Shown: piece by piece, positions 1,616 through 11,425 of the stretch
Layout of the letters: each line of letters begins with the position of its first letter
Position numbering within the stretch: the stretch's first letter is position 1
Virus record (IMG/VR): IMGVR_UViG_2695420523_000016
Source: a virus
Taxonomy: Duplodnaviria > Heunggongvirae > Uroviricota > Caudoviricetes
DNA length: 11,425 nt
Direction: 5' to 3' (one strand)
Made by a program: the position numbers and the translations under genes
The notes under the pieces: model-generated
Told to the model about the DNA's origin: nothing
What the model saw: the letters and a program-made list of their open reading frames with translations, nothing else
The model's database searches: none

Positions 1616-2326
1616 CTAAAATGTTATAAATAGTTTTCTCAAATCGCGGTCGTTTGAGAATATATAGTTCTTCGCTTCAAATAGATTATGAGCGTTTTTT
1701 ACAGTTAGAGGAATGATGCTTTTGAAGGAGCTATATGATTTTTGTCTTACATGTTCGAATTCTGACATTTTTAAGCCACGCAGGGTCATTATTATAGTTC
1801 TAATGGATTGAATTATAAGTTCTATGATATTGATTAAGCCAAAATGTATTTTATCGAACTCATGAACGGGCTTGTATCTGAATAACTTCATAGTGTTAAG
1901 GTCGTTTGCTAAAAGCTGAGTTGTGACTTCTAATTCAGTTATTGTATCAAGCAAATATGATTTCATTGATTCGAGAACCGAGTCCTTAAGATGATGGTCA
2001 TAGCCGTTGATTCTAAATTGATAATTTTTAAGTTTAAACTCCAATTCCTCTACGGTATTGAAAATTTTAGGGTAGTGTTGAGTTATTATTTGTTTTTGTA
2101 TTGTGTATGCGTCATCCCTATATTTCTCTTTTTGCCAGTTCGAATATACATAGCCAGCAAAGATGAGAGTGATGACGCTAGAGCCAGCACTTAACAAATC
2201 AGATACGCTCCCCCATTCGAAACTATCAGAACTAGAAAAGAGTACTTTAATGAAAGCTAATATCGCTACCCATAGAAGTACTATGACGGTAGCAACTAAC
2301 AATTTGTTCCATCCTTTAACTCTCAC
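1616..2326 (-). CDS. Hypothetical inner-membrane protein (two N-terminal TM helices, cytoplasmic helical domain of about 170 aa)
   Basis: 236-aa ORF with a GTG start at 2324-2326 and a weak SD. Hydrophobic segments LLVATVIVLLWVAILAFIKVLF and SSVITLIFAGYVY. No family recognised. Confidence 0.5.
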   Translation of the reverse strand: MRVKGWNKLLVATVIVLLWVAILAFIKVLFSSSDSFEWGSVSDLLSAGSSVITLIFAGYVYSNWQKEKYRDDAYTIQKQIITQHYPKIFNTVEELEFKLKNYQFRINGYDHHLKDSVLESMKSYLLDTITELEVTTQLLANDLNTMKLFRYKPVHEFDKIHFGLINIIELIIQSIRTIIMTLRGLKMSEFEHVRQKSYSSFKSIIPLTVKNAHNLFEAKNYIFSNDRDLRKLFITF

Positions 2327-2498
2327 ATTCTTAACCCGTAGCCTGGTTCATGGATGAAAAATTTTACCATTTGCAGTTATGTTTCGTAAATGATCATCGG
2401 AAAGTGATAATTTAACTTAAGTGGCAGTTGCAACGTAGTTAGGTGGAGTAGTGCTGGCTGAGATCACTATTTCTTTGAAAAAAACGGGGCAGGTTGCT

Positions 2499-2528
2499 TT
2501 GAACTGGTTAACATAGTGGGATTATAAG
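2499..2528 (+). promoter_or_regulatory. Candidate sigma70 promoter for the HNH operon (-35 ttgaac at 2499-2504, 17-18 nt spacer, -10 ttataa/tataag at 2522-2528)
   Basis: Hexamers read directly; positioned about 30 nt upstream of the SD AGGAGG at 2549-2554. A palindrome gaagta-g-tacttc at 2533-2545 overlaps the expected transcription start. Confidence 0.3.
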
Positions 2529-2558
2529 CACCGAAGTAGTACTTCAGCAGGAGGCGAT

Positions 2559-3287
2559 ATGAACAGAAAGCAATTCATCCAGTCACACGGAGCTACTTGC
2601 AGTAACTGGACGTGGAGTTGGTCATTTGTTAACCATGAAAAGAAGATGGTCATCTTTGGGTCATGGGATGTTGAGAGTGAGCATGAGCGATCTGTAATAC
2701 TCCGTGAGAAATGGGAATACAACTCAAACAACAAAAAACAACCGGGATACACCCAGGCTCTGGAACACATCAGGTTAGTCCATGAAGGCTACGAACTTTA
2801 CACCTTCAATATGGTTTTCGCAGAACATCCGGATAATCCCGAAATTGCAGTAATCAAAGATTTTGAGCGTAAATTAAACAAGCGATATCTTCGTAAAGAA
2901 GGCGTTGTTTGGTATGCAGACTTCTTACCTAATCCATTCCCCGATGAAATTCCTTCAGGAGAGAGTTTTGTTGAAGGTGCAAAGACTCAAGTAACAGTGA
3001 ACTACTACGAACGCGATCCAAAGGCCAGACAAGCCTGCATCCAGCATCACGGTACTACCTGTAAATGCTGTGGCTTCGATTTTGAGAAGGTCTATGGTAC
3101 ACATGGCCGTGGGTTCATTCATGTACATCACATCAAGCCGCTTCATACGATTGGGGAAAACTATGTAGTAAACCCCGTAACAGATATGATCCCATTATGT
3201 CCAAACTGCCATGCAATGGTACATCGTGGAAGCGGTGTACTTCCAATTGCAGACTTGAAAAAAAAAATGACATTATGGAGCGAGTAA
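2559..3287 (+). CDS. HNH-family nuclease: unassigned N-terminal domain of about 150 aa fused to a C-terminal HNH (McrA-like) motif
   Basis: 242-aa ORF with SD AGGAGG at 2549-2554. The C-terminal region CKCCGFDFEKVYGTHGRGFIHVHHIKPLHTIGENYVVNPVTDMIPLCPNCHAMVH shows the Cys pair, HVHH, and CPNCH-x3-H pattern of HNH nucleases. The N-terminal region (FIQSHGATCSNWTWSWSFVNHEKK...) matches no signature I can name. Confidence 0.85.
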   Translation: MNRKQFIQSHGATCSNWTWSWSFVNHEKKMVIFGSWDVESEHERSVILREKWEYNSNNKKQPGYTQALEHIRLVHEGYELYTFNMVFAEHPDNPEIAVIKDFERKLNKRYLRKEGVVWYADFLPNPFPDEIPSGESFVEGAKTQVTVNYYERDPKARQACIQHHGTTCKCCGFDFEKVYGTHGRGFIHVHHIKPLHTIGENYVVNPVTDMIPLCPNCHAMVHRGSGVLPIADLKKKMTLWSE

Positions 3288-4079
3288 ATGGATTTATCAC
3301 AATTGAGTAACGTCGAATTGATGCAACTGAATCAGTTGACGCTTGATGAGTTAGAACGACGAGAGGTTATCAGAACCAGAAACAATCCTATCAGTGAGTA
3401 CACTGAATGGCTGATTGCGGAAAAGATGCAAATGGTACTGGCTGCACCTAGTACTAAAGGGTATGACGCTACAACGATTGATGATCGAAAAATTCAGATT
3501 AAGTCTCGTAAGAATAATTTAAAAAACCGAACGTTAATTCTTGGAATTATCAGAAATTATGATCTGAACCAATTCGATGAACTCATTGCCGTAATATATA
3601 ACCATGATTTCTCAATTCGTTATGCTATATCCATACCACATGGATTAGTGAAGGAATATGGTTTTTATAATGAGCACCAGAATGGTTACACTCTAAGAAT
3701 CAGCAATTTATTACTTAATGATCCACGTGTAACAGATATCATTGAATTCATTGATCCAGACACTGAACGTTCAAAGGAAGAGATCACGGTGAAGCCAGAT
3801 TCAAACACTATTCGGGATGTACAGACAATAGGAATGCAGACATTTGTTGAGTACTATCAATATGTTGAAGGTGGAATGGACACAACTGATCTTGTTGAAA
3901 AGATGATAACTGACCATCCAGAGTGGAAGGAAAGTACTGCAAGAACAAAGGCATCTTCAATGCGAAGAGTATTCAAGAATGGCGACAACATTGAGGTACT
4001 AAAAATCATCTATAAGTCGAATCACCCAGCAATAACGCATGAGATTAAGAGTAAACTGATGACGCTTTGGGATAAATGA
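3288..4079 (+). CDS. Hypothetical protein, translationally coupled partner of the HNH nuclease; possible PD-(D/E)xK-like N-terminal region
   Basis: 263-aa ORF. Its ATG at 3288-3290 directly abuts the upstream TAA at 3285-3287, with GGAG about 9 nt upstream. The segment EYTEWLIAEKM...GYDATTIDDRKIQIKSR has an E...D...QxK spacing compatible with a restriction-endonuclease-like fold. No Walker A or methyltransferase motifs. Confidence 0.7.
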   Translation: MDLSQLSNVELMQLNQLTLDELERREVIRTRNNPISEYTEWLIAEKMQMVLAAPSTKGYDATTIDDRKIQIKSRKNNLKNRTLILGIIRNYDLNQFDELIAVIYNHDFSIRYAISIPHGLVKEYGFYNEHQNGYTLRISNLLLNDPRVTDIIEFIDPDTERSKEEITVKPDSNTIRDVQTIGMQTFVEYYQYVEGGMDTTDLVEKMITDHPEWKESTARTKASSMRRVFKNGDNIEVLKIIYKSNHPAITHEIKSKLMTLWDK

Positions 4080-4670: not shown

Positions 4671-5180
4671 ATGAAACTCGAACATTTGGCAATTCCGATC
4701 ACTTCATTGAATGGAAAATTACTCGGCGTTGAGCTGGAAACACGTGTACTTATAGATGGTTGCCGGGTGTTGGTTGGTATAGGTAAGGAAAGTGAATACA
4801 TACGTCACGTGGTCTATCAGAACCAGCTAAGAATGATTCAGGGCAAAGCCGCATGGTTTAAAGAAAAGGGGCTGTTGTGCGTGCTCAGTACTGGCAGGGG
4901 TACACGGTATGACGATCTACCATTCATACGGTACATGGCTGCTGAACCACTGCTAACCGACGGTTACGACGTAATACGACTAAATAGACGGTTCACTGAA
5001 GAACACATCGAAAGGCTGATTTTCCCGGTACTCATCAAGAACATCATGCAGTACTGCGACAAGGTGATCGTACAAGTCACTGGCAATAACAATCACAGGA
5101 TTCTACGAGAGTCGGGGATATGGGCAGTACAGGGAGAGTACAGGCCAATCCGCTTTGAACAATGCGAACAACTTCTATAG
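4671..5180 (+). CDS. Minimal or degenerate EAL-like protein (c-di-GMP phosphodiesterase-like fold, probably non-catalytic)
   Basis: 169-aa ORF with GAGAG upstream. The N-terminal PI-x-SLNGKLLGVELETR resembles the EAL-domain start motif (QPI...G.L.G.EALLR). The C-terminal VIVQVTGNNNHRILRESGIWAVQGEYRPI resembles the AEGVE...QGY motif with Glu replaced by Gln. The central DDFGTG region is absent. Confidence 0.5.
   Translation: MKLEHLAIPITSLNGKLLGVELETRVLIDGCRVLVGIGKESEYIRHVVYQNQLRMIQGKAAWFKEKGLLCVLSTGRGTRYDDLPFIRYMAAEPLLTDGYDVIRLNRRFTEEHIERLIFPVLIKNIMQYCDKVIVQVTGNNNHRILRESGIWAVQGEYRPIRFEQCEQLL

Positions 5181-6753: not shown

Positions 6754-9193
<2,440 letters not shown>

Positions 9194-9205: not shown

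Positions 9206-11425
<2,220 letters not shown>

Follow-up and report, generated by a model that had tools for sequence, protein, structure and literature searches.

A conserved tryptophan-rich domain with a predicted SRA-like fold, fused to an McrA-type HNH nuclease on mobile DNA: a putative reader of modified bases

Phages with disguised DNA meet a major barrier in modification-dependent nucleases, which also serve as tools for the mapping of 5-methylcytosine (5mC) and 5-hydroxymethylcytosine (5hmC). The SRA-HNH enzymes TagI and ScoA3IV (Sco5333) contain an N-terminal reader, a short linker and a C-terminal HNH nuclease in a single polypeptide of about 250-310 amino acids (aa), with no partner methyltransferase (PDB 6ghs; PMC6212794). 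The EVE-HNH enzymes VcaM4I and TspA15I also follow the order PUA-superfamily reader, linker and HNH, and are orphan genes lacking methyltransferases (PMC7897488, PMC6765204). The HNH gene described here encodes a protein of 242 aa with the same plan and is located in IMG/VR virus record IMGVR_UViG_2695420523_000016 (Caudoviricetes), whose 11,425-nucleotide (nt) stretch, analysed at its full length, is referred to as the window. The overall plan of a reader and an HNH nuclease is well known; what is new is the family to which the tryptophan (Trp)-rich N-terminal domain (N-domain) belongs. The favoured reading, to which a probability of roughly 60% is assigned, is that of a single-chain endonuclease, type IV-like and dependent on modification, whose gene is carried by mobile DNA and in which a new SRA-like reader family is connected by a linker to an McrA-type HNH domain. 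This reading draws directly on the autonomy and conservation of the N-domain, its predicted fold and fusion partners, the intact nuclease motif, the orphan status of the gene and its mobile-element setting.

The first 145 residues of the protein have no match in Pfam (expectation value E≤0.1), NCBIfam or PADLOC, and yet they are widely conserved. Residues 1-158 recover 300 proteins at E≤1e-3 (90% clusters), nearly all of about 240-255 aa and annotated just as HNH endonuclease. With residues 1-150 as the query, HMMER searched 1.84 billion representatives (50% clusters) exhaustively and found 260 clusters, of which 178 had E≤1e-10. The conserved unit, delimited by a hidden Markov model, runs from residue 1 to about 123 and is independent of the surrounding architecture. 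The N-terminal segment is a real, self-contained domain and no chance feature. The original prediction, made from the letters of the window, had proposed an unassigned Trp-rich N-terminal domain, and a distinct domain without an entry in the family libraries searched is confirmed; on the other hand, the extent of about 150 residues that it gave must be divided into a folded mobile unit (residues 1-123), a linker (about 126-147) and the McrA-type HNH module (from about 148).

Among 88 diverse members, the residues R3, F6, G11, C14, N16, W21, S22, F23, F33, G34, W36, W52, Y78, L80, F83 and L111 are at least 90% conserved. The conservation analysis across homologues that had been suggested with the original prediction identifies three tryptophans (W21, W36 and W52) that reach this level in the broad family. 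The N-domain has its own motif set, GATCxNWxWSWSF, FGAWD and EHIRL; the peptides FIQSHGATCSNWTWSWSFVNHEKKMVIFGSWDVESE and EGYELYTFNMVFAEHPDNPEIAVIKDFERKL correspond to residues 6-41 and 76-106 of the 242-aa HNH protein, respectively. Residues 1-125 include six Trp (4.8%), the family median being 4.7%.

The 80 loci found from alignment A1 are distributed over Enterobacterales, Pseudomonas, marine Gammaproteobacteria, Bacteroidota, Chlorobi, Chloroflexi, Armatimonadota, Verrucomicrobia and others, and the top genome match for the HNH locus is a Buttiauxella assembly. Such a patchy spread over many phyla is as expected for horizontally moved defence genes. The N-domain is undescribed in the literature that was found, including that on DUF6998, COG3183, SRA-like HNH proteins and the EVE/DCD surveys. 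It is a previously uncatalogued family, with no model in the three libraries searched. A published architecture-guided screen began from annotated PUA and DUF3427 domains (PMC6765204), and a reader family that is absent from Pfam would for this reason escape it. At the DNA level, the first 110 nt of the gene (2559-2669, encoding MNRKQFIxSxGATCxNWTWSWSFVNHE) align with 74-82% nucleotide identity to distant phyla, such as Nitrospira and Caldilineaceae; this alignment, seen with loci L026, L036, L054, L063, L081 and others, is unusually strong for a short segment.

The partners of the N-domain are diverse. In longer relatives, Pfam and PADLOC scans place it in fusions with HNH, HNH_2 and HNH_5, as well as with NOV_C nuclease domains (matching PADLOC PD-T4-1 and PDC-S36) and MUG113. 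Some relatives have an EVE-N-domain-HNH arrangement, and in relative P0255 the N-domain precedes a genuine TagI homologue (E=3.4e-63 to 6ghs). Swapping among unrelated nucleases, combined with stacking on known readers of modified bases, usually marks a module as the specificity or sensor domain of modification-dependent restriction enzymes (PMC6765204, PMC7641849). The N-domain is indeed placed where type IV enzymes carry a reader, as originally noted, and its partners are nucleases and known readers (EVE, SRA). EVE and the N-domain are not interchangeable copies, since both coexist in a single protein of some relatives. The stacking with EVE or SRA readers in one polypeptide, instead of their replacement, would be explained by a divergent specificity. 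A tentative possibility is that the N-domain forms a reader clade of its own, unlike canonical SRA domains in specificity or in the mode of reading, which would recognise, via its unique GATCxNWxWSW loop, glucosylated or other hypermodified cytosine, a non-cytosine modification or a free modified nucleotide.

The fold of the N-domain was predicted with AlphaFold2. The first model (residues 1-150, 32 sequences) had a predicted local distance difference test score (pLDDT) of about 88 over residues 1-125, residues 127-150 being disordered. The second model (residues 1-125, 88 diverse sequences) reached a pLDDT of 95.7 and a predicted template modelling (TM) score of 0.88, with the same secondary structure as the first. 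In a structure comparison with 48,164 PDB chains, SRA and SRA-like readers were the 12 best chains in both of two runs, and the best matches were DNA-bound SRA domains. The ranks after the top SRA matches are occupied by MspJI, SauUSI, AspBHI and other PUA-like barrels (RsmE N-domain, Lon-N). The alignment to the top SRA structures covers about 95 of the 125 residues at about 3.2 Å, with an identity below 11%. The likeness to the SRA fold is specific, with scores in the remote range, because each of the top 12 reads modified cytosine or is a close relative. The EVE, YTH and ASCH clades provided neither a profile match nor a best structural match, and the N-domain is not of the type of NEco, the N-terminal specificity domain of EcoKMcrA. 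Judged from the models, the N-domain is probably a new family with the known SRA-like (PUA-superfamily-like) reader fold. The absence of an SRA or EVE/PUA signature that had been claimed stands for the sequence, where no profile matches, and probably fails for the fold. In the same way, the proposed new reader domain would be new as a family and not as a fold, its role as a reader being putative; the predicted fold resembles that of modified-cytosine readers and not a known one of unrelated function.

The nuclease domain is intact. The zinc ligands C168, C171, C214 and C217, as well as H190-H191, D209, H218 and H222, are conserved in 94 full-length homologues, which retain the CxxC...CxxC and His residues. 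Residues 148-226 align to EcoKMcrA (6ghc, E=1.8e-6), and the HNH part aligns to ScoMcrA (5zmm) too. This conservation of the zinc and catalytic residues and the alignment to solved type IV enzymes indicate that the HNH nuclease looks functional. PADLOC calls the protein mREase_IV, and the NCBIfam model PT-DNA_restrict matches residues 136-225, placed in the linker and HNH, weakly (18 bits against a cutoff of 180). The linker holds E139-G140-A141, conserved in the HNH-fused subfamily, and is missing from the other architectures of the N-domain.

There is no cognate protecting methyltransferase near the HNH gene, as is typical of type IV systems. None was found in the window nor in six annotated or called contexts (E. 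coli, Klebsiella and others), and a motif scan placed candidates within 6 kb in 4 of the 87 loci, none of them adjacent. The nearest E. coli locus has the HNH gene between serine recombinase and terminase genes. A second E. coli lineage carries it next to ffs, in an integrase island that also encodes a type III restriction subunit and has other defence-like genes. The N-domain also occurs on 128 plasmids from Klebsiella, Enterobacter and E. coli, most of them conjugative.

Phage-region HNH nucleases are often packaging or homing enzymes (HK97 gp74 type, PMC4926085), and modification reading by the N-domain is reached by inference. The N-domain could instead target a DNA sequence or structure, in which case the protein would be a nicking, homing or other non-type-IV HNH nuclease, and the Foldseek list considered below includes sequence-specific PD-(D/E)XK enzymes. 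Such a role is unlikely. With no protecting methyltransferase nearby, a sequence-specific double-strand nuclease would be self-toxic, and the EVE and SRA tandem fusions point to modified-DNA biology. In addition, a distance of 3.5 kb, with several genes on both strands in between, separates the gene from that of the terminase small subunit, and it also occurs in non-phage chromosomal and plasmid sites; only the HNH part, and not the N-domain, found matches among 50,697 deposited phage genomes. These last observations, together with the length of 242 aa and the extra domain, also ruled out a terminase-associated HNH of the HK97 gp74 type.

Several observations weigh against the type IV-like reading. 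The methyltransferase scan was crude, relying on simple motifs that could miss enzymes. No sequence or profile link of the N-domain to SRA or EVE was found: the profile of the 88 N-domain sequences retrieved from all PDB sequences just ribosomal protein S6 (E about 0.9, noise), and the Pfam scan of the 88 members at E≤1 gave scattered single matches, with no family, no SAD_SRA (PF02182) and no EVE. The hhalign probability against a 5-sequence SRA profile was 0.2%, and it remained below 1% with the small profiles of SRA and EVE, for which PDB alignments and fusion partners had served as the source; the SRA-versus-EVE control failed too, so the test has low power and its negative is unable to exclude distant homology. 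The Foldseek search suggested with the original prediction was run with the first model against the PDB and returned nothing significant (no match better than E=0.1, TM below 0.35), and its list mixes PD-(D/E)XK nucleases, with EcoRV, Hjc and SwaI on top, with SRA-like matches; as a basis for classification the list is of no use. This ranking, along with an order of helix, three strands, helix and strand that resembles the PD-(D/E)XK core, raises the idea of a degenerate, Hjc-like PD-(D/E)XK fold acting as an additional nuclease module, whether inactive or active, or in dimerisation. It is very improbable, as no D...(D/E)xK motif is conserved: D37 and E50 are, but W52 follows E50-x and no lysine is conserved there. 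Moreover, the three other nuclease types found as partners would make a second nuclease redundant.

The remaining contrary observations concern the uses of the N-domain and its charge. Complete stand-alone copies of 127-142 aa occur at loci L052, L055, L081 and L085. Three stand-alone copies adjoin what we take, from their sequences, to be housekeeping genes (dnaN-like, ribosomal-protein-like and pyrE/gshB-like), and the copy of L081 is placed between a gene that is presumably ATPase-like and large and genes that, from their N-terminal sequences, we take to be DUF262-like and DUF1156-like. Rare fusions to VWA and glycosyltransferase domains also exist. The N-domain is consequently not exclusively a nuclease adaptor and may have uses beyond nucleases. 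Furthermore, the query N-domain is charge-neutral and not basic, with an isoelectric point (pI) of 7.0, though the family median is 8.6. The same observations would suit a domain that senses a free ligand, such as a modified nucleotide set free in infection, and switches the HNH on allosterically instead of reading modified bases in the DNA duplex; the binding of free modified nucleotides by PUA-type domains is reported for defence systems (bioRxiv 10.64898/2026.01.15.699771). This mode of action is nevertheless rather improbable, given that the architecture and linker mirror those of the reader-HNH enzymes that read DNA directly, TagI, ScoMcrA and VcaM4I (PMC6765204), that the best structural matches have DNA bound and that the family median pI fits nucleic-acid binding.

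For a type IV-like endonuclease, DNA binding, base flipping, dimerisation and cut distance can be proposed by analogy with TagI, ScoMcrA and VcaM4I. A dimer would form through the HNH domains. The N-domain would bind to a modified base, for which a cytosine modification is most likely in view of the structural neighbours and of the Eco15I partner encoded downstream. The base would probably be flipped into an aromatic pocket of conserved Trp/Tyr, and the HNH would then cut at a short, fixed distance from it. Incoming phage or plasmid DNA that carries the modification would be destroyed and the host DNA spared, so that no partner methyltransferase would be needed. The coordinates of the features are collected in Table 1.

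Table 1. Position of the HNH gene, its domains and the other features of the window (ORF, open reading frame).
Feature	Coordinates (nt)	Strand	Details
HNH gene (ORF)	2559..3287	+	242-aa product
Shine-Dalgarno AGGAGG	2548..2553	+	5 nt before ATG at 2559; direct sequence reading
Trp-rich SRA-like putative reader domain, residues 1-123	2559..2927	+
N-domain layout			helix 3-9; conserved loop GATCxNWxWSW 11-21; strands 22-25/30-36/44-49; helix 62-75; strands 79-89/97-102/107-114/117-122
Linker, low predicted order, residues 126-147 (about 25 residues)	2934..2999	+	pLDDT <50 for 127-150
McrA-type HNH (beta-beta-alpha-Me) nuclease, residues 148-242	3000..3284	+
Pfam HNH PF01844, residues 168-223	3060-3227	+	E=2.4e-6, 28 bits vs cutoff 21.4
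Eco15I orthologue	3288..4079	+	BisI-family catalytic domain, residues 1-155 (3288-3752), and C-terminal domain of unknown function (3753-4076)
ORF divergent from HNH gene	1616-2326	-	236 aa
ORF weakly EAL-like	4671-5180	+	169 aa
gpA-type large terminase, split	7285-7809 and 7778-9193	+	overlapping ORFs
Lambda-family portal ORF	9721-11241
IS1 end	11161-11425
InsB C-terminus	11176-11421	-

The HNH stop and the ATG of the Eco15I-like gene abut (TAAATG), and the two genes are translationally coupled. The product of the second gene matches Eco15I (PDB 8q5m, E=1.6e-32), NhoI (E=6.9e-19) and PADLOC mREase_II (E=3.4e-61). Eco15I is a member of the BisI family, whose cutting of GCNGC requires methylation or hydroxymethylation at several cytosines, and the C-terminal domain of Eco15I is of unknown function (PMC11347163, PMC4926085); the family is a proven 5mC/5hmC-dependent one (PMC11347163). 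The C-terminal domain of the Eco15I-like product shows no relation to the N-domain by BLASTP and has no Pfam match. Both genes are present in just 3 of the 87 loci, namely the window and two E. coli lineages, and a Buttiauxella prophage with 96% identity over the HNH gene has no Eco15I-like gene. An obligate two-gene system was rejected on these grounds. The arrangement suggests two independent modified-DNA nucleases stacked in one operon.

The window is a decayed prophage, in which the large terminase of the gpA type is divided between two overlapping ORFs; the break in the Pfam GpA_ATPase profile falls exactly at position 134, between them, and points to a frameshift and a defective prophage. 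The portal gene is interrupted at its 3' end by the IS1 end (GGTAATGACTCCAACTTATTGATAG...), which includes the C-terminus of InsB; about 26 codons at the close of the portal ORF consist of IS1 sequence. The 169-aa product listed in Table 1 weakly resembles an EAL-type cyclic-di-GMP phosphodiesterase in the C-terminal part of the latter (NCBIfam PRK11596, with E=1.9e-6 and far under the cutoff), and its ORF is conserved in the E. coli AREA_C483 prophage. The 236-aa product of the divergent ORF has a hydrophobic N-terminal stretch, a weak Csm6-like match in PADLOC (E=2.7e-4) and no Pfam family. In conjugative Klebsiella plasmids (L087, K. pneumoniae IncFII p3347684I_4, 2334-4058), the HNH homologue is just downstream of repA and adjoins an NYN-domain gene.

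If modification reading is true, a compact sensor of 123 aa would be added to the repertoire and may have a new specificity. It could then also influence plasmid and phage traffic in clinically relevant Enterobacterales. The family is not small, with 260 clusters at 50% identity in many phyla and 128 mostly conjugative plasmids. Coupling with an enzyme of the Eco15I type suggests that defences against DNA with modified cytosine are stacked here.

The comparison with the known systems defines the place of this protein. The SRA-like domains of MspJI, LpnPI, AspBHI, PvuRts1I and AbaSI have no sequence relation to the N-domain, and their nucleases are PD-(D/E)XK or Vsr-like, not HNH; in PvuRts1I and AbaSI the domain order also differs. 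A relation to the CMoRE/PD-T4-3 sensor was rejected, because the domain order and the nuclease differ, PADLOC gave no PD-T4-3 match, and the authors of that work report that neither sequence nor structure revealed homologues of their sensor (PMC12923530). ScoMcrA (SBD-SRA-HNH; 5zmm/5zmn) is a protein of 560 aa with a head, a sulfur-binding domain (SBD) and a canonical SRA, whereas the query has one small divergent reader and no SBD. VcaM4I and TspA15I, alike in their layout, carry a reader of another clade, EVE, for which the N-domain has no match. With respect to TagI and ScoA3IV, the N-domain lacks a Pfam SAD_SRA match or profile similarity, is shorter (123 aa against about 150) and has a motif set of its own, and TagI has an HNH_2 nuclease in contrast to the McrA/PF01844 type of the query. 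The HNH finds its closest solved sequence relative in EcoKMcrA (NEco-HNH; 6ghc; PMC7145662), which shares the arrangement of an N-terminal specificity domain followed by a C-terminal HNH in an enterobacterial, prophage-type setting.
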